A stretch of 64,000 nt of DNA from positions 1,088,001-1,152,000 of the forward strand of contig CM000434.1 of assembly GCA_000165345.1 (NCBI GenBank), read 5' to 3'. The notes under the pieces were generated by a model, which saw nothing but the letters and a program-made list of their open reading frames with translations, was not told where the DNA came from and did no database searches. Shown in pieces: positions 3,001 to 61,151 of this stretch. How positions within the stretch are numbered: position 1 is the stretch's first letter; each line of letters opens with the position of its first letter. A program made the translations under genes and the position numbers.

Positions 3001-3382
3001 GAAGAACAAACTTGGTTGTTTCAGTCTTTCCAGCTCCAGATTCCCCACTTATTAATATTGTTTGAGACTTCTTTTGAGTACAAACTCCAGTATATGCCTT
3101 ATTAGTAACACTAAACACATGTGGAATATCGGAATTACTCTTCAGCCTAAACTTCTGAATCATTTCCATAGAATAGAAACCTTCCAAAGTTCTATATGGA
3201 TTTACTGCAATTAAAATTGGGCCGGTAAATGTGTAAATCTTATCAAGATCAAACCTAGAATTAATTGCATGCAAAATTGAAGGCTGATGGAGATGAGTAA
3301 GTTCGCAAAGATCGTCCGGAGTAACCACACCACAATCTGAAAGTTGCTCAGCTGCTCTAATATGAAGCTGCCCCCCCGCCAT
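1..3382 (-). CDS. myosin heavy chain: motor domain, IQ motifs and start of coiled-coil tail; the C-terminal part lies beyond the window start
   Basis: Minus-strand ATG at 3382..3380. Translation MAGGQLHIRAAEQLSDCGVVTPDDL...SQTILISGESGAGKTETTKFVLQFL carries the myosin P-loop GESGAGKT. Further 3' (plus coordinates about 600-950) there are repeated IQ-type motifs (IQSIWKGVLSRRRFK, IQTIFRGHVARQKLK), then coiled-coil-like text running to position 1. It is absent from the ORF track, probably because it is open at the window edge. Frame continuity was read by eye only. Confidence 0.7.
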   Translation of the reverse strand, partial: MAGGQLHIRAAEQLSDCGVVTPDDLCELTHLHQPSILHAINSRFDLDKIYTFTGPILIAVNPYRTLEGFYSMEMIQKFRLKSNSDIPHVFSVTNKAYTGVCTQKKSQTILISGESGAGKTETTKFVLQFLTVVGSSNNSVSSGIGDSGTGNEKRYSFVEDQIIQSNPLLEAFGNSQTLRNNNSSRFGKFIEIQFSELTSNSTLESDSSSMCISSACINTYLLEKVRVCHQQKGERNFHIFYQLCSAAKHIISQGSSHEENLIYRFPSHNTESILFSRKNSENVVLNPHMAQLREQLFSNPMEIDLSHIVSEKNFKYLEGSECQETDFHQFERTLYAVRTMGITNDQLYNIIKIIKAVMFLGNITFIENEGESSIPHESCFQDLEIVSSLLSIPKDDIVRLLTCRKIQLREGEIMKHLSVQEAETTKDAVSKALYSLVFDYILHLVNTQISRARENETNDAHQEKDKKDLYCGILDIFGFECFPNNSFEQLCINFANERLQQIFNDYIFNIEQDLYIQEDISWDPIDFPDNGDCVQLLQQQKPVLGILPAIDEECFVPQGSNIGLLNKLVKEYSGKNTRFDIVKKKPNNFVVVHYAGPVSYCVDNFIEKNKDQLSHYSTEVLSSSENPWVSDLIKAKFSDHILDSESNTKLKRQQTLGSSFRNQLNKLISTIKQTNPHFIRCIKPNSNNSPDEFDRISVSEQLKYGGVLQAIQVSRAGYPVRFPHFEFLLDYMILFSPCGQLSISKSRDEYGRWCRSILNSGQVQETKNVTSLSESNNTRKSQIIELMENLNSSGLISKHEQTTQWAVGLTRVFLKIEAFRDLEQLRVRVRDTASTKIQSLWRMILCRNQYSKAIKAIITIQSIWKGVLSRRRFKLLLKEKAALKIQTIFRGHVARQKLKCMQLCVKMIQSRWRVYLRRKEAEEKLYIRRVCLIQSTFRMYLQRRYFIRLSGSVLKAQILWRGKLARRQFQKLKEEKNEFSELFAKYQEALIEIQKLKGNCSRLEDQLYKALSERNSLKDEREQLNQELLARKTEERTVSDLGTISDSIDHDHNQDQNQNKNQVSQNIDSSNSILGVSSQIQSQREEKEVANGLEISKQQEIIKRLLRLSSYPFSKLGLLESIPEILF

Positions 3383-3740
3383 GTTAGATCCAACCTCCAA
3401 AGGAAGTTTAAAAACAACTTCCTCTGAAACCTCCTCAAGTGTTAACTCATCAACCACATTTGAAACTTTGACTGAAATCTGTGAATCATCCACTCTAGAG
3501 ACAACGCCAGGCCTCCAAACCTCTTTGGGACATGGAATCCATACAAGTGACCCTGGCCCAAAAAGGCCAGTCCCTGAGTCCAGATCTCTGGAGTTCTTCA
3601 TAAGTACTTCCAGAGAATTGTGGCAATAATCCTTCAAAAAGAGCCTTGAATTTTTTACTTTCTCTATTTGAAGCTTTAAACTTTAATAAAAAAACATTAA
3701 ATTTTTCAATGCATTTAGACCGGGGTTAATTGATCTCCAA

Positions 3741-36905: not shown

Positions 36906-36923
36906 TGCATGCATGCATGCATT
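36906..36923. promoter_or_regulatory. (GCAT)n/GCATGC palindromic run atgcatgcatgcatgcat in the large intergenic region upstream of the TVP38 paralogs
   Basis: This is a perfect tandem tgcatgca palindrome. Similar runs occur at 61051-61066 (tgcatgcatgcatgca) and 61965-61990. Confidence 0.3.
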
Positions 36924-55593: not shown

Positions 55594-56913
55594 TCAGAAA
55601 AATTGGCATTCTGACTCAACCAAACCAATTTTATCAAAAATTGCACATACATATTTTCCTATTGGAAGTCTATTGGATTTGAAAATTGTCCATCTCAAAA
55701 TTCTCAAATTGTGGGGAGCTAGATTATTACATGCATTCGGGTTTCCCGCGTATTCTTCGTGCACTTTTCCAATATTTTCAATAAGTATTCGATTATGAGG
55801 TGAGAGAAACCAATTATAGTCAATTTCTGTTGAAAATGCTCTTGTTGGTGGAGGCATGTAGAATGTTCCAAATCCTTCACAATGAACGCTTTTTGGGTAA
55901 TTGACATCGCATAAAAGCTGATTTGAGCAGTAGCCAAGGACGGTGTTAGTTTGTTTAATAGATTGTTTAGCGAGTGAAGTTACAACTGAAGATATATTTA
56001 GAGCCTTAGATACATACCTAATTAATCTCCCAACTATAAAGACCTTTTCTTTGACTTCTTTATAGTAATTATTAGAAAGTTCTTGAGCTTCAATAAAGTT
56101 ATGGGATCCCAGCAATGATGTAATTGGGTCAATAACAACTAGTTTGAGTCTTTTTAGTTCTTTTTGTTTGATTCTTGGTAGGTCATATAGTAGTTTTTGT
56201 AGTTGAGCACAATCATCTACAGTCACTACACAAATGTTCGAGAGGAGGAGTTCCAAATTATGACTAATTTCTGTTGAATATTGTGAGTTTTGAGTCATTT
56301 CAAGTTCTCCACACAATCTTTGAAAACATTTCTTCATGAAAATTGGATCAAAACTATTGTCGGTTGTTTGAATGTAAATAACTTGATATGGAGAAATTCC
56401 TTCTAACTCTGTTTCAACATTTAAGCTTTCTAATGTTGAGTTAAACATAGTATTTGATATAATCCAGTGAACAACCCTTCTGATAACTGGTAGATCATGC
56501 CCAAAAAGTTCAGTGGTTTCACCTGCAAGAAATCCTCCATCAAAAAAATCCATTAGTATATCGGATCCTAGGTTTATATGCGATCTTAAGTCTCCATTCT
56601 GGGACCAGTTTTCTCTAGCTTCCTCTAATAATTTTTTACCTGTTACAAATCCAGTTTCAATACCAATACCACAAAGGTTAATTTTTTGGTCTTCTGTGAC
56701 GTTATTAGGGAAGCATGTAATTTTTTCTCTACATTTTGAGTAAATCCTTGCTTCTTGAAAGCTTTTTAGCCCTTTTTTTCTTAGGTTATCTAATAAAAGC
56801 TGTGGAATTGTTTTTATATCATTTTTAACGAGCTCATTTTTTGTTTCCTCATCAAGTTCAAGAATGTCAAAGAGATCGTTGTTCTCTTTACTTTTACTGA
56901 AATCGTCAGGCAT
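55594..56913 (-). CDS. RecA/RAD51-family protein with degenerate Walker A (candidate RAD51 paralog)
   Basis: ATG at 56913. HINLGSDILMDFFDGGFLAGETTELFGHDLPVIRR matches the RAD51-family pattern TG...LD.LLGGGI..G.ITE.FGE.G.GKT, but the GKT/S is replaced by DLPVIR. The Walker B-like LKLVVIDPITSLLG and RLIRYVSKALNISSVVTSLAKQ correspond to L..LA.EF.VAVVITNQV. Confidence 0.4.
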   Translation of the reverse strand: MPDDFSKSKENNDLFDILELDEETKNELVKNDIKTIPQLLLDNLRKKGLKSFQEARIYSKCREKITCFPNNVTEDQKINLCGIGIETGFVTGKKLLEEARENWSQNGDLRSHINLGSDILMDFFDGGFLAGETTELFGHDLPVIRRVVHWIISNTMFNSTLESLNVETELEGISPYQVIYIQTTDNSFDPIFMKKCFQRLCGELEMTQNSQYSTEISHNLELLLSNICVVTVDDCAQLQKLLYDLPRIKQKELKRLKLVVIDPITSLLGSHNFIEAQELSNNYYKEVKEKVFIVGRLIRYVSKALNISSVVTSLAKQSIKQTNTVLGYCSNQLLCDVNYPKSVHCEGFGTFYMPPPTRAFSTEIDYNWFLSPHNRILIENIGKVHEEYAGNPNACNNLAPHNLRILRWTIFKSNRLPIGKYVCAIFDKIGLVESECQFF

Positions 56914-57518
56914 TGTAAAAATATCAAGTAATTATTTTGACCAGTTTTAGATACTTTTAATCTACTAGATAAGTCCATACATATATATACATATACATAA
57001 GTTTATTTATTATTTTGATTATTCCAACTTAACTCCTACTTATCCATTAAGTATAGTGGGGGAACGGTATAATTAACCAAAAGTTTATGAAAAAATTACC
57101 CATAAAAAAAAAAAATCAACAATTAACTGGAAGACTCAATTATAGTTTATTTTGATCTTAGAAAGATGCCACCAGATTCATTAATAAATATTTTCTATCC
57201 ACATGAAGTGTCAAATTTGCATGGTATATTTTATGCATGCAAACACCGGTATAGGAATGTGTGCAATAATGTGGACAAATAAATAATAATAGATTAAAGA
57301 ATATAATTAAATATTTAAAGAAAATTTTTCGTTAATAATGACTAATCATGAAAGTTATAATATGAATCTTTAATTGATTTTAAAAAATGCATATTTTCAC
57401 ATAAATTAAAAAGAGGTAATTATTTTTCAATTAGAAAATTCAATAAGCAAGCTCGCAAAAATGTTTAAATAAATCAGTCAAATTTAGCAATTAGTATGAA
57501 AAGTTGGAATTACTAGTA

Positions 57519-59096
57519 ATGATGAGCAAAAAGGAGTTTGAGCGTTTACAAGCAGTTATTTTAGTATGTTTATTATATTTATGTATCCATGTTGAAGGAA
57601 ATGGCAGAAATGTAACAGGATTTGTACCAGAATTTAGGAATTCAAGAAGAGAGCCAATTCTTACAAGAGCACCTCCGGTTACAATACTTGGAGATCCAAG
57701 CATATCACTAACTATTCCAGCAAGAAAAGTTTGTTATAAGGGCTCATTTGATTCGAAGTATAATTCGTGTACTTATATAGATAAGAATGATGAGGCAGTT
57801 CCAATTTATAAGGTAAGTAATATGAAGGATTTCCAACTAATATAAATTTAATAACAAAATGGAAATTAATATTTCTTTGTAAAGCCTTGTATAGGTAATT
57901 CAACATTGGTAGATGGATATTGCATTGGAACAATGATTTCAGATTACGAAAAGTATTGTCATGGATAGTAAGTGCAATTGAAATGAATTATGAGATTTGG
58001 TTAATTCAGGTAAATTAAAGCTTTAGATTGAATAATGAGGATTTATGCATAAATTACTCAACCTATACTCCGCCTAGAAGGATTTGCCCTGAAGGATTTG
58101 AGTTGAAATCGGTAGGTCAACAACAATTGCAAGTTAAAAGGTGTGTGAGGAAATTGTATTCGAGACCAATAAAAATTCCTGTAACGGATTCTTTGGGAAG
58201 AGAAAAGTATAAAACAGAATGTAGTCACAAAGATAATAAGTATTGCCCAATAGTTAGGGCACCACAACCTGCTAAATATGTAATGCAATGCCCTAAAGGC
58301 GCAAAGTTAGTTAGTTCTTTTGATAACTCAAAAGCAACATGCGAAACCAAAGTAACAGTTGTTCCAGACTTTGATAGAAGATGTGGGGGAGAGCAGTCTG
58401 GGTGGTTTTGGGATGGGGAATTAAATGTATGTTTAAAACTAAGAACACATGAGCCAAAGTTACGCTGCCCACATCCAAGACCAAAATTAGGGATGGAAAT
58501 AGGAAATTGGGATACACCAGAATATGAACCTCATCCAATATATACATGTTTGGCAAATAGAGCTAGAGCAATAGTAAAGGGTAAGTGTGTAAATATATTC
58601 AGTTAATTAATTTATACAAATATTTCAAAAAACAAATTTCAGGTTGCCCACCTGGTTACACGTTAAAAAAAAGAAAGTGTTTCAGACTTATTAGGCTTCC
58701 TTATGAATTGGATTGTGAGCATGCTGAAGGGTAAGTTTTAATTAATATGTTCTTAAACAATAGTTAAAATCACATCAAACTATTTACTCTTCTTATTTCT
58801 TCCCCACTATTTATATTTCTAGGTTCAAGTTTGAATATGACGCCTCTACAAAAAAAGCAGTTTGTAGATTCAAATTTAATCAGCAGGACTACATTGGTCT
58901 TCCAAGTTATCCTTCTTCAAGAGAAGCATTGACTTCCCATAAAATATTTAAGCATGCTAATATTGAGGATATAATTCGGGCATATCAGCAAGGTACTTTA
59001 AATATCAGGACAATAGAGGAGGAACTAGTAAAAGAATACGACCTATTGGCAAAAATGGAACAAGGAAAGGAGCAAGTTGAACGCCCAGAAGAGTAA
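57519..59096 (+). CDS. secreted cysteine-rich protein with CPxG[F/Y]-type repeats (possibly oocyst-wall-protein/COWP-like); 5 exons
   Basis: Model join(57519..57812, 57885..57967, 58021..58580, 58643..58730, 58823..59096), about 432 aa. Exon 1 is MMSKKEFERLQAVILVCLLYLCIHVEG (signal peptide)...VPIYK, then GTAAGT at 57813. Exon 2 is PCIGNSTLVDGYCIGTMISDYEKYCHG, then GTAAGT at 57968. Exon 3 begins after aaAG at 58019-58020 and contains ICPEGFELKSVGQQQLQVKRC, QCPKGAKLVSSFDNSKATC and CPHPRPK. Exon 4 is GCPPGYTLKKRKCFRLIRLPYELDCEHAEG. Exon 5 is a 90-codon open frame ending EQVERPEE. Phases were checked (0, 2, 1, 2). The ORF track lists only fragments 57504..57845 and 58028..58606. Confidence 0.45.
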
Positions 59097-59173
59097 TACT
59101 CATATTAATCGTTATTTAAATAATTCATTATACTAGTATTTATACATTTAGAATAATATAAAGATAAACTGTC

Positions 59174-59188
59174 TGGCGCCGGCGGGAA
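59174..59188. promoter_or_regulatory. ctggcgccggcgggaatg E2F-like GC cluster upstream of the DEAD-box helicase gene
   Basis: The cluster is 70-85 bp upstream of the ATG at 59258. Confidence 0.4.
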
Positions 59189-59257
59189 TGCATAACTGTA
59201 AAAGCTGACATTAATTATTTATTCGAAGGCGAAATAAAGAGGAGAGAGAAAATAAAG

Positions 59258-60889
59258 ATGTGGAGTTCTTTAGAGTTAAGTAGGCCTTTATTAAAGGCAT
59301 TAAGCGATTTGAACTTTGTAGAAGCAACGTTAATTCAGAAGGAGGTAATTCCATTGGCATTATCGGGAAGAGATATTATGGCTGAGGCAGAAACAGGAAG
59401 CGGAAAGACAGCAGCATTTTTATTACCTGCATTGGAAAGATTATTGAGGTCACCATATGTTCGAAATTCCAGGGTATCATCATTGGGAAGAGTTGGTGGA
59501 GCAGTTGGTACAAAGGTGTTGGTATTATTGCCAAGTCGTGAACTAGCAATGCAATGCTTTGGAGTATTAGAATCTTTGACAAAATATTGCCCAGTGATAA
59601 CCAGGGCAGTAGTAACAGGTGGGATGAATATTCAACAGCAAGAAAGAATACTTAAATGCCAACCACATATTGTTATAGCAACACCAGGAAGAATTTTGGA
59701 TATGCTATTAAATACATTAAGCATACAGTTAGAATTATTGGAAATAATTATATTGGATGAAGCTGACAGATTATTGGATATGGGGTTTCGTCAAGAATGT
59801 TTGGAAATTCTTAAATATTCATCTAGAACTCGCCAGACAATGTTATTTTCAGCAACATTAAGTAGAAGTGTAACAGATTTAGCTTTATTGGCTCTAAATA
59901 ATCCATGCAAAGTATCTACAGTTGGTCTCAAATCAGGGATCAAATCTGTAGGAAGTTCAGGAGAATCAGAATTATTATCTATTACAGGTTTATCATCAAC
60001 ATTAGAACAAGAATTTCTTGAGATTACTAAAGAAGAAGAAAGAGAAGGCGCTTTGTTTTATATTTTAAATAAGATATTTACAAAAAGGGTTATAGTCTTT
60101 TTCCAAACTAAAAAAGAAGCTCATAGATGTGCAATTTTAGGAAATATTTTTGGATTATCATCAACAGAGTTACATGGATTCTTACCACAAGAAAAACGTT
60201 TAGAAAATTTTTCAAAGTTTAAATCTGGACAAGTTGATATTTTATTTGCTAGCGAACTAGCAGCAAGAGGATTGGATGTACAAGATGTTTCTGCAGTTAT
60301 CAATTTCACTATTCCATTAGAAGCTTCTAGATATATTCATAGAGTTGGAAGAACTGCAAGAATTGGATCTAAAGGCAATTGCATTACAATTTACACTCGA
60401 AGCGAAAGAAGCCAGTTAAAAGCTTTAATGAAACAGGTACTAAGAGCAGGTAATAAGTCTTCTGTTGCAGGAAGAGACACAAAAGAAAATGTATCTTCAA
60501 TTATGAAGAAGAGAACTCTTGCTACTAATAACATTAATCAATGGGTTGAGAAAATATCTAATTCTGAAAAACAAGTCAAAGATGCAATAAAAGCAGATAT
60601 TACAGAAAAAGAACTTAGAATTGCTGAGATGCAAGTAAATAAAGCGCAAAATATTCTTTTACACAAAAAAGATATTGAATCCAGGCCAAGAAAAAAGTGG
60701 ATAAAAAGCAAAAAAGAAAAGGATTTAACTAGAGAATCTGCAAAAAAGGATTTATTAAAATCTTGTTCTTCACTAATTGGCCAACATTCGGCATTTAATC
60801 AAGTTAAGAATACTCTTCAAAATGATTTAAAATCCAGTAACAAAACGGTTACTAATAAAAACAAAAAAAGAAAATTATCACAAAAATGA
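59258..60889 (+). CDS. DEAD-box ATP-dependent RNA helicase, DRS1/DDX27-like (ribosome biogenesis)
   Basis: ATG at 59258. The Q-motif region ([16 protein letters not shown]), motif I [17 protein letters not shown]-like [31 protein letters not shown] (compare Drs1/DDX27 [25 protein letters not shown]), motif [15 protein letters not shown], SAT (LFSATLS) and [13 protein letters not shown] are all present, with a K-rich C-terminal tail. Confidence 0.75.
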   Translation: [543 protein letters not shown]

Positions 60890-61151
60890 ATATAATTTTA
60901 TCATTCTAGTTTTAATTAATTTATATTAATTCTTAAAGTTTATTTTTTCTTCTCATTATTATGATTATTCTTTAAACCCTGATTTGTCACTTTTACCGTT
61001 TTATTACGTGGCATTTTTTCTGATATATTATTATCCACATTAATTCCAAATGCATGCATGCATGCAAAAAACACGTAATTATAGGTTAACAATTATTCAG
61101 TTTCTTTATTATTATATTTTGAAAAATTTTTAGATAACTTAATTAATTTCA

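Follow-up and report, generated by a model that had tools for sequence, protein, structure and literature searches.

Positions 57519 to 59096 of the window analysed here (a stretch of 64,000 nucleotides from the Cryptosporidium parvum genome, contig CM000434.1) hold a single spliced gene of five exons, CPATCC_0016450, on the forward strand. Its product of 432 amino acids is best explained overall, with a probability that we would put at about 0.7, as a secreted protein of the oocyst wall protein (OWP) superfamily that forms an ancient orthogroup of its own and is most likely one of the oocyst wall's structural components. Judged on its sequence, it adds to that superfamily a tenth member, divergent and deeply conserved, which stands outside the nine named Cryptosporidium oocyst wall proteins (COWPs).

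The gene is not a new one: it is annotated already, as uncharacterized. By exact-sequence look-up, the 432-residue product is QOY41370.1 / WRK33090.1 (C. parvum CPATCC_0016450 / cpbgf_6004820, "Uncharacterized protein"), with a twin of 431 residues in C. hominis, and UniProt gives the name 'Oocyst wall protein' to orthologues or relatives from C. muris, C. andersoni, C. canis, C. meleagridis, Besnoitia and Lankesteria. An earlier reading of this DNA (the original prediction) had called the gene invisible to the track of open reading frames; it is not unannotated, the exact model being present in current C. parvum assemblies and its orthologues already bearing a wall-protein label. With the gene correctly modelled and its family hinted at in UniProt, the advance is modest, and lies in recognizing CPATCC_0016450 as an OWP-superfamily member beyond the nine COWPs, not in finding a gene.

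Kinship with oocyst wall proteins

In the literature, COWPs are defined by a signal peptide, the lack of a transmembrane domain, and periodic cysteines arranged in type I (in some members also type II) repeats, with cysteines recurring at about every 10th to 12th residue (PMC12548878). The CPATCC_0016450 protein displays a signal-type N-terminus, no transmembrane domain, periodic cysteines and homology to type I repeats, the homology being measured against coccidian OWP6 and OWP2 sequences and not against C. parvum COWP1-9 themselves.

The signal-type segment predicted at the outset was found by hydropathy and the -3/-1 rule at residues 1-27 (57519-57599, + strand), which read MMSKKEFERLQAVILVCLLYLCIHVEG and are followed by NGRN. 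Hydropathy over 12 residues reaches its maximum of 3.18 at residues 12-23, the hydrophobic core of the segment; V and G occupy positions -3 and -1 before residue 28, where the rule would place cleavage; an AlphaFold2 (AF2) model has a helix at residues 4-26; and orthologues have equivalent hydrophobic N-termini. All high-hydropathy windows of 19 residues fall within residues 7-29, so that the mature protein has no other hydrophobic segment and no transmembrane domain. A linker of about 45 residues without cysteines follows the signal peptide, poorly conserved and modelled with low confidence over residues 28-58.

The cysteine-rich core spans residues 72-362 (57732-58883, + strand, introns included) and consists of 20 cysteines in ten two-cysteine units, predicted to be all-beta. 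There are 22 cysteines in the whole protein and 20 in the 405 residues of the mature part (4.9%). These 20 are invariant across seven Cryptosporidium sequences, bar one mis-modelled residue in C. canis, and nearly invariant across 19 distant relatives. Within the core, neighbouring cysteines are spaced at 8 to 27, the median being 13, and 8 of the 19 spacings measure 11 or 12, a more degenerate pattern than that of OWP6. Units 2 (CIGNSTLVDGYC-x11) and 9 (CPPGYTLKKRKC-x11) have the spacing C-x10-C-x11 and occupy one mini-exon each (exons 2 and 4), the other units having stretched loops. The three CPxG motifs quoted in the original prediction are all in frame (CPEG at 58085, CPKG at 58289 and CPPG at 58645) and make up three of the six CP.G matches in a six-frame translation of the window, some 128,000 residues. 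Analysis of cysteine units and composition found no second repeat type in the mature protein, histidine contributing 2.0% of its residues. The His-rich type II repeats that mark the COWP1-3 subgroup were considered as a feature and rejected as absent; members of the COWP4-9 type need none.

Beyond the core lies a conserved, cysteine-free C-terminal tail (residues 357-432, 58866-59093, + strand) with the motif DYIGLPSYPSSREALTSH...RAYQQG and then a long predicted helix at residues 389-427. A short 'S-x-R-E' motif in this tail is kept from gregarines to Cryptosporidium.

The AF2 model was built on a 19-sequence alignment; a run on the seven Cryptosporidium sequences alone gave a predicted local distance difference test score (pLDDT) of 34.6 and was discarded. 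Mean pLDDT in the model retained is 76.2, with paired strands in almost every unit and a core mostly above 83, except for loops at about 181-210 and 281-290. The low predicted template modelling score (0.42) is what would be expected of an elongated rod, and the model agrees with published models of COWP4 and COWP6, which are elongated, beta-rich and disulfide-linked (bioRxiv 10.64898/2026.05.05.722909).

Word-indexed searches with the family profile and with EnOWP6 returned 4 matches and 1 match, with no COWP among them. As references we used supplementary sequences of Jonscher et al. 2015 (PMC4514997): EnOWP6, EtOWP6 and TgOWP6, which belong to a group with canonical 23-residue type I units, and EnOWP2, EpOWP2, EmiOWP2 and TgOWP2, whose repeats are described as 'degenerated type I repeats' (PMC4514997). 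By BLASTP the product matches EnOWP6 at E 7e-6 (residues 68-399 against 157-511), a score that none of 200 shuffles reached, including when cysteine positions were fixed. Profile alignment with hhalign of the 19-member family against EnOWP6, EtOWP6, TgOWP6 and a Gregarina relative gave a match at 98.0% (E 1.6e-13, 231 columns, score 108.3), whereas scores in the controls were 14.8 and 18.5 for reversed profiles, at most 18.0 for column shuffles and at most 23.4 for shuffles with the cysteine columns fixed. That the OWP6 match survives the cysteine-fixed controls means that the similarity amounts to more than cysteine spacing, and the guess of a COWP-like protein is upheld by formal alignment to OWP6 type I repeats, above every control. 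Against OWP2 the family matched at 82.5% (E 9.8e-6); OWP6 against OWP2, taken as a benchmark, gave 99.4% (E 1.4e-21, score 164.8). Together, the two profile matches and the benchmark imply that the protein is homologous to OWP type I arrays but belongs to a divergent branch.

Might the resemblance to COWPs reflect a common cysteine periodicity alone, in a protein that is really EGF-like or of CPW-WPC type? The CxxG[FY]xL...C hairpin is similar to the one at the C-terminal end of EGF modules, and EGF-like, growth-factor-receptor Cys-rich and CPW-WPC modules have in common with the CPATCC_0016450 product small disulfide-clamped beta-hairpins and a C-x-x-G-aromatic signature; growth-factor-receptor Cys-rich domains are annotated in COWP4 and COWP6. 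Pfam cEGF finds weak matches in 3 of the 19 relatives (best E 0.029), and CPW_WPC matches 4 of the 19 (best E 0.0025 in a scan of the family), the best among those scanned singly being the Besnoitia protein with 17 bits against a cut-off of 23. All of these matches, however, lie under the curated cut-offs, the C. parvum protein itself having only cEGF (E 2.7; 8.4 bits where 26.6 are needed), so that the suggested EGF membership did not hold up and the comparison with EGF comes down to a generic resemblance. The units, moreover, contain two cysteines per approximately 23 residues, not six per approximately 40, and the OWP6 match withstands both cysteine-fixed column shuffles and sequence shuffles. 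We regard an EGF or CPW-WPC identity as very unlikely. As candidate families, the EGF-like domains (Pfam EGF, cEGF, EGF_CA) were rejected because the C. parvum protein and its relatives fall below the gathering scores, and CPW-WPC (PF09717) because the C. parvum protein has no match and the four relatives that do are sub-threshold.

Comparison with individual family members helps to place the protein. With OWP6 (EnOWP6; EtOWP6 = ETH_00012470; TgOWP6 = TGVEG_286250), whose orthologues are reported to have the same architecture as C. parvum COWP6 (cgd4_3090), it shares a signal peptide without a transmembrane segment and tandem two-cysteine hairpins of the form C-P-x-G-[FY]-x-L-x4-C-x11, units 2 and 9 being exactly C-x10-C-x11. 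OWP6 proteins, however, have around 20 regular units of 23 residues and 8% cysteine, compared with ten units, mostly with stretched loops (C-x7 to C-x26), and 4.9% cysteine here, and of the two only the CPATCC_0016450 protein has the post-signal linker of about 45 residues and the conserved helical tail of 75. Identity over the aligned region is about 21-23%; the protein is not an OWP6 orthologue. OWP2 (TgOWP2 = TGVEG_209610; EnOWP2), which has been described as associated with the sporocyst wall in Eimeria nieschulzi (PMC4514997), is similar in length (462-467 residues against 432), in the irregular cysteine spacing of its type I-like repeats, and in having small introns and a single architecture conserved across species (PMC4514997). 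It differs in having 47-48 cysteines (about 10%) with CC and CxC pairs and another intron-exon structure, and the match between the two is marginal only. Orthology to OWP2, prompted by the lengths of the Besnoitia relative (460 residues) and TgOWP2 (462), was rejected because BLASTP against TgOWP2 and EnOWP2 mostly scored within the range of shuffles, hhalign reached 82.5% for OWP2 and 98% for OWP6, and the cysteines number 47-48 in OWP2 against 22 here. Nothing in the Besnoitia relative corresponds to the primer-encoded ends of HOWP1 (EtHOWP1 / TgHOWP1; APTSG..., ...EPYKSTE), and we judge kinship with HOWP1 unlikely.

The nine COWPs of C. parvum are, in order, cgd6_2090, cgd7_1800, cgd4_670, cgd8_3350, cgd7_5150, cgd4_3090, cgd4_500, cgd6_200 and cgd6_210. 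By family description the CPATCC_0016450 protein resembles them in its signal peptide, its lack of a transmembrane domain and its periodic cysteines; cowp7 is likewise a multi-intron gene, with eight predicted (PMC12548878), and the cysteine content of COWP4 (4.96%) is close to that of the mature protein here. It differs in being without His-rich type II repeats, and because the locus lies between cgd6_4800 and cgd6_4830 it can be none of the nine.

When 1.84 billion representative proteins were searched with a HMMER profile built from the Cryptosporidium orthologues, only 28 relatives came up at E<=1e-3, and those that are full-length align end to end in a single stretch. Full-length relatives with a recorded source come from Besnoitia besnoiti (XP_029219390) and the gregarines Ancora sagittata and Lankesteria abbotti, to which may be added two proteins from transcriptome assemblies (GHVT, GHVS) and one 'bee' protein. 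Two family members are recorded from a bee genome (XP_053992957 / XP_053992956, 'Hylaeus volcanicus', E 1.6e-15) and most likely derive from a gregarine-like parasite contaminating the assembly. Every named relative belongs to a lineage with resistant oocysts or gametocysts, and on these alignments the protein is placed in a separate conserved orthogroup of Cryptosporidium, Besnoitia and gregarines, being neither one of COWP1-9 nor an orthologue of OWP2 or OWP6.

Gene structure and faulty public models

The five exons join in frame to give 1299 nt, encoding 432 residues and a stop codon, and the result is identical to the annotated C. parvum protein; coordinates and product had been predicted exactly. 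Exon 1 (57519-57812, 294 nt, residues 1-98) contains the start codon, the signal-type segment, the poorly conserved linker and the first two-cysteine unit. Exon 2 (57885-57967, 83 nt, residues 99-126) is essentially one canonical unit, CIGNSTLVDGYCIGTMISDYEKY (C-x10-C-x11). Exon 3 (58021-58580, 560 nt, residues 126-313) carries units 3-8 along with the CPEG and CPKG motifs, and the protein of its ORF has exact matches in 38 blocks of public read assemblies. Exon 4 (58643-58730, 88 nt, residues 313-342) is again essentially a single canonical unit, CPPGYTLKKRKCFRLIRLPYELD (C-x10-C-x11), and exon 5 (58823-59096, 274 nt, residues 342-432 and a TAA stop at 59094-59096) contributes the last cysteine and the conserved tail. 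The description of exons 2 to 5 as four short cysteine-bearing exons was loose, exon 3 being 560 nt long and holding 13 of the 20 mature cysteines. Each mini-exon coincides almost exactly with one C-x10-C-x11 unit. As neither length is divisible by three and the flanking phases differ, this modular look is no sign of exon shuffling.

Introns 1 (57813-57884, 72 nt, phase 0, GTAAGT...AAAG), 2 (57968-58020, 53 nt, phase 2, GTAAGT...AAAG), 3 (58581-58642, 62 nt, phase 1, GTAAGT...TCAG) and 4 (58731-58822, 92 nt, phase 2, GTAAGT...CTAG) lie on the + strand, all start with GTAAGT and end with AG, and have a G+C content of 18-26% compared with 33-40% in the exons. Only four copies of GTAAGT occur in 57000-59500 and they are the four donors. 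Since the window as a whole shows no excess of the hexamer (22 on the + strand against about 19 expected), support for the junctions comes from position and frame and not from motif counts. Four introns is indeed a high number for the C. parvum genome, as the original prediction remarked, but there is precedent in the eight predicted for cowp7 (PMC12548878).

All four introns recur, in codon position and in phase, in the annotated C. muris model (intron 1, for example, at the same position and in phase 0), which has a fifth as well. Compared with C. canis and one more intestinal Cryptosporidium, exons are 71-92% identical without internal indels (exon 2 at 89-92%), and the sole run of gaps falls where exon 5 varies, at its 3' end. 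Identity drops to 44-66% in the introns, all of which contain indels, often not multiples of three, intron 1 being 57-61% identical with large indels. Sequence and species comparison thus argue strongly for splicing at all four junctions.

As had been noted, a bacterial-style list of open reading frames (ORFs) shows just two disconnected fragments of more than 60 residues at the locus, at 57504-57845 (113 residues, exon 1 plus 15 read-through codons) and 58028-58606 (192 residues, exon 3). Is it conceivable that the model is nevertheless wrong, and that the locus consists of separate small genes, a pseudogene or unspliced ORFs? Several public annotations split or fuse the gene, into models of 125, 147, 219 and 986 residues. 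Against this, the spliced frame is open, and conservation extends to the cysteines and the residues at the junctions; introns keep their positions and phases as far as C. muris, with indels in every intron and none within exons; and unspliced read-through soon meets stop codons, a TAG immediately in the case of intron 2. The divergent public models are best explained as annotation errors; in C. canis, for example, the conserved splice restores the invariant cysteine that the model loses. We therefore find a wrong gene model hardly credible.

These errors take several forms. In C. canis, the models KAJ1605954 and KAJ1609135 continue past the true intron-1 donor (GAG|GTAAGA), so that the invariant Cys100 is lost; an intron of 109 nt in JAPCXB010000087.1 (locus positions 2795-2903), homologous to window 57813-57884, restores 'PIYE|PCLGNSTLVDGYC', and the public C. 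canis models are probably mis-spliced. In Cryptosporidium sp. chipmunk genotype I, XP_067200040 is a 986-residue 'Drs1p' model in which the CPATCC_0016450-type gene is fused to the downstream helicase; this fusion puts two unrelated families into one 90% cluster with a helicase as representative, which hides the C. parvum match from homology search. A two-exon model of 125 residues (GCA_001865345.1, LRBP01000016.1, locus positions 3001-3466) ends after exon 2 because read-through of intron 2 gives a TAG. That the 125-residue protein might be the product of a spliced transcript was considered and rejected, given that it is a truncated genome annotation (GCA_001865345.1). C. felis KAF7456857 (147 residues) and C. 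tyzzeri TRY50830 (219 residues) are fragments, and C. meleagridis POM83048 (409 residues) has a deviant C-terminus past '...REALTS' and looks frameshifted. All told, truncation, fusion to the helicase or mis-splicing affects public models of the gene in at least five species, and the family is hidden from routine searches as a result.

The fifth intron of C. muris (locus positions 3335-3400) follows 'CGGADS' in phase 1 and is without counterpart in C. parvum, where its place would be near window 58396. The Besnoitia besnoiti orthologue has a sole intron of 123 nt (locus positions 2353-2475), after 'CAK' and in phase 0, and the two fall in the same alignment column to within 1 nt. The coincidence suggests an ancient intron near window 58396 that would have been lost in the intestinal Cryptosporidium lineage.

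A proposed role in the wall and its alternatives

How might such a protein work? The 432-residue product would enter the endoplasmic reticulum co-translationally by way of its N-terminal signal peptide, and the mature protein of about 405 residues would fold as an elongated all-beta rod of ten two-cysteine 'CPxG[FY]xL...C' hairpin units, which we take to be degenerate versions of the type I repeats of apicomplexan oocyst wall proteins (COWP / TgOWP / EnOWP). Its 20 cysteines, conserved and even in number, would pair, at roughly one disulfide per unit, and so stiffen the rod. Packaging in female or zygote wall-forming bodies would be followed by incorporation into the wall, and the conserved tail helix may mediate oligomerization or docking. 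The role that we propose is thus that of a disulfide-rich structural part of the oocyst wall, or of a wall sub-structure, laid down in female/zygote development. We infer the disulfide pairing, the secretion route, the expression stage and the wall localization, the last of which is plausible.

A number of observations weigh against this proposal. First, the gene is not in the tandem mass tag (TMT) proteome of excysted oocyst material of Bacchetti et al. 2025 (PMC12548878), where the table rows pass from cgd6_4790 directly to cgd6_4830. Absence from the table implies that the protein was either not quantified or not in the search database, and could reflect low abundance, resistance to extraction, or a model missing from the Iowa II database; earlier mass spectrometry of the wall also missed COWP5, COWP7 and COWP9. 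Second, the match to canonical OWPs is much weaker than that of OWP6 to OWP2 (scores of 108.3 and 164.8), and OWP6 and OWP2 both end in cysteine repeats, without a helical tail. Third, the Cryptosporidium-only profile found no COWP1-9-like protein at E 1e-3 among the 1.84 billion representatives. That no COWP-like paralogue with tandem arrays was significant fits the distance measured from OWP6 and OWP2. Fourth, the identifiers of the gene were not found in the main texts of the literature searched. Finally, COWP6 shows that an OWP fold does not confine a protein to the wall (bioRxiv 10.64898/2026.05.05.722909). In addition, the gene is not in those differential-expression tables of Tandel et al. 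2019 (PMC6877471) that were open to search.

The case of COWP6 deserves closer attention. According to published work, this protein occurs in sporozoites, is released in the course of motility and attaches to host cells (bioRxiv 10.64898/2026.05.05.722909). Given that a protein with the OWP fold acts in sporozoites, a non-wall role is a real rival: the CPATCC_0016450 product might be a secreted OWP-fold protein at work outside the wall, in the sporozoite, on the zygote surface or in a secretory organelle, with adhesion or sporozoite tethering as its function. Its absence from the oocyst TMT table would fit, as would the extra conserved helical tail that OWP6 and OWP2 do not have. A further hint comes from the palindromic TGCATGCA site (AP2_1-type) at 57234-57241, 285 nt 5' of the ATG, a motif tied in Plasmodium to sporozoite genes (PMC3734150). 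AP2_1-like motifs, however, are widespread and have also been reported upstream of late (Class II) COWP genes (PMC3734150). The site lies within a divergent intergenic region of 605 nt common to the cgd6_4800 gene, and the window has 17 copies of TGCATGCA, with 0.63 expected. We consider the upstream site a weak regulatory hint, since the motif is frequent and could serve either of the flanking genes. What speaks against a non-wall role, furthermore, is that the named relatives come solely from lineages making resistant oocysts or gametocysts, and that the wall-protein family is the only family with which homology can be demonstrated. On balance, we think a function outside the wall unlikely and favour a structural wall protein.

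Along the same lines, we tentatively entertain a bolder version of the wall proposal, at rather less than even odds: that the gene represents an unrecognized, ancient and essentially single-copy branch of OWPs (a 'COWP10') and a core, universally conserved element of the apicomplexan oocyst or sporocyst wall. The layout of 20 cysteines plus helical tail would have been kept from gregarines by way of Cryptosporidium to tissue-cyst coccidia and, having been in place since gregarines, would imply a branch that predates the lineage-specific expansions of COWPs and TgOWPs. Such a protein could be, say, a nucleating, linking or suture component and not one more redundant wall protein. No 'COWP10' or tenth COWP is named in the literature searched.

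The oocyst wall is the basis of the waterborne spread of Cryptosporidium and of its resistance to chlorine. Papers up to 2026 still use the list of nine COWPs, of which COWP8 is dispensable yet COWP4 is reported to be essential. It is because individual members can differ in this way that the candidate matters, and a tenth relative whose conservation reaches from gregarines to coccidia, all cysteines being fixed, is a sensible target for tagging and knockout.

Neighbouring genes and motifs

The gene lies on chromosome 6, flanked by a P-loop gene (cgd6_4800) and a DEAD-box helicase (cgd6_4830), in a window whose G+C content is 26-39%. The P-loop neighbour is a single exon for 439 residues on the - strand (55594-56913) and matches XP_627807 / CPHLJ_6g4800 exactly. 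Downstream, on the + strand, a Drs1p-type DEAD/DEAH helicase of 543 residues is likewise encoded by a single exon (59258-60889), with an exact match on C. parvum chromosome 6. In the published proteome table the helicase is cgd6_4830, and cgd6_4790 is a B-box zinc-finger protein (PMC12548878). The order of B-box protein, P-loop protein, CPATCC_0016450 gene and DEAD helicase is kept in C. muris, C. canis and another species.

Two places in the window, 36906-36921 and 61051-61066, carry three overlapping copies of TGCATGCA each, forming (TGCA)n-type arrays of the AP2_1 palindrome. A spacer of 162 nt separates the stop codon of the CPATCC_0016450 gene from the ATG of the helicase, and in it TGGCGCCGGCGGGAA at 59174-59188 forms a back-to-back pair of E2F-like sites; the window has 20 copies of the corresponding motif, GGCGSSAA, with 0.83 expected.

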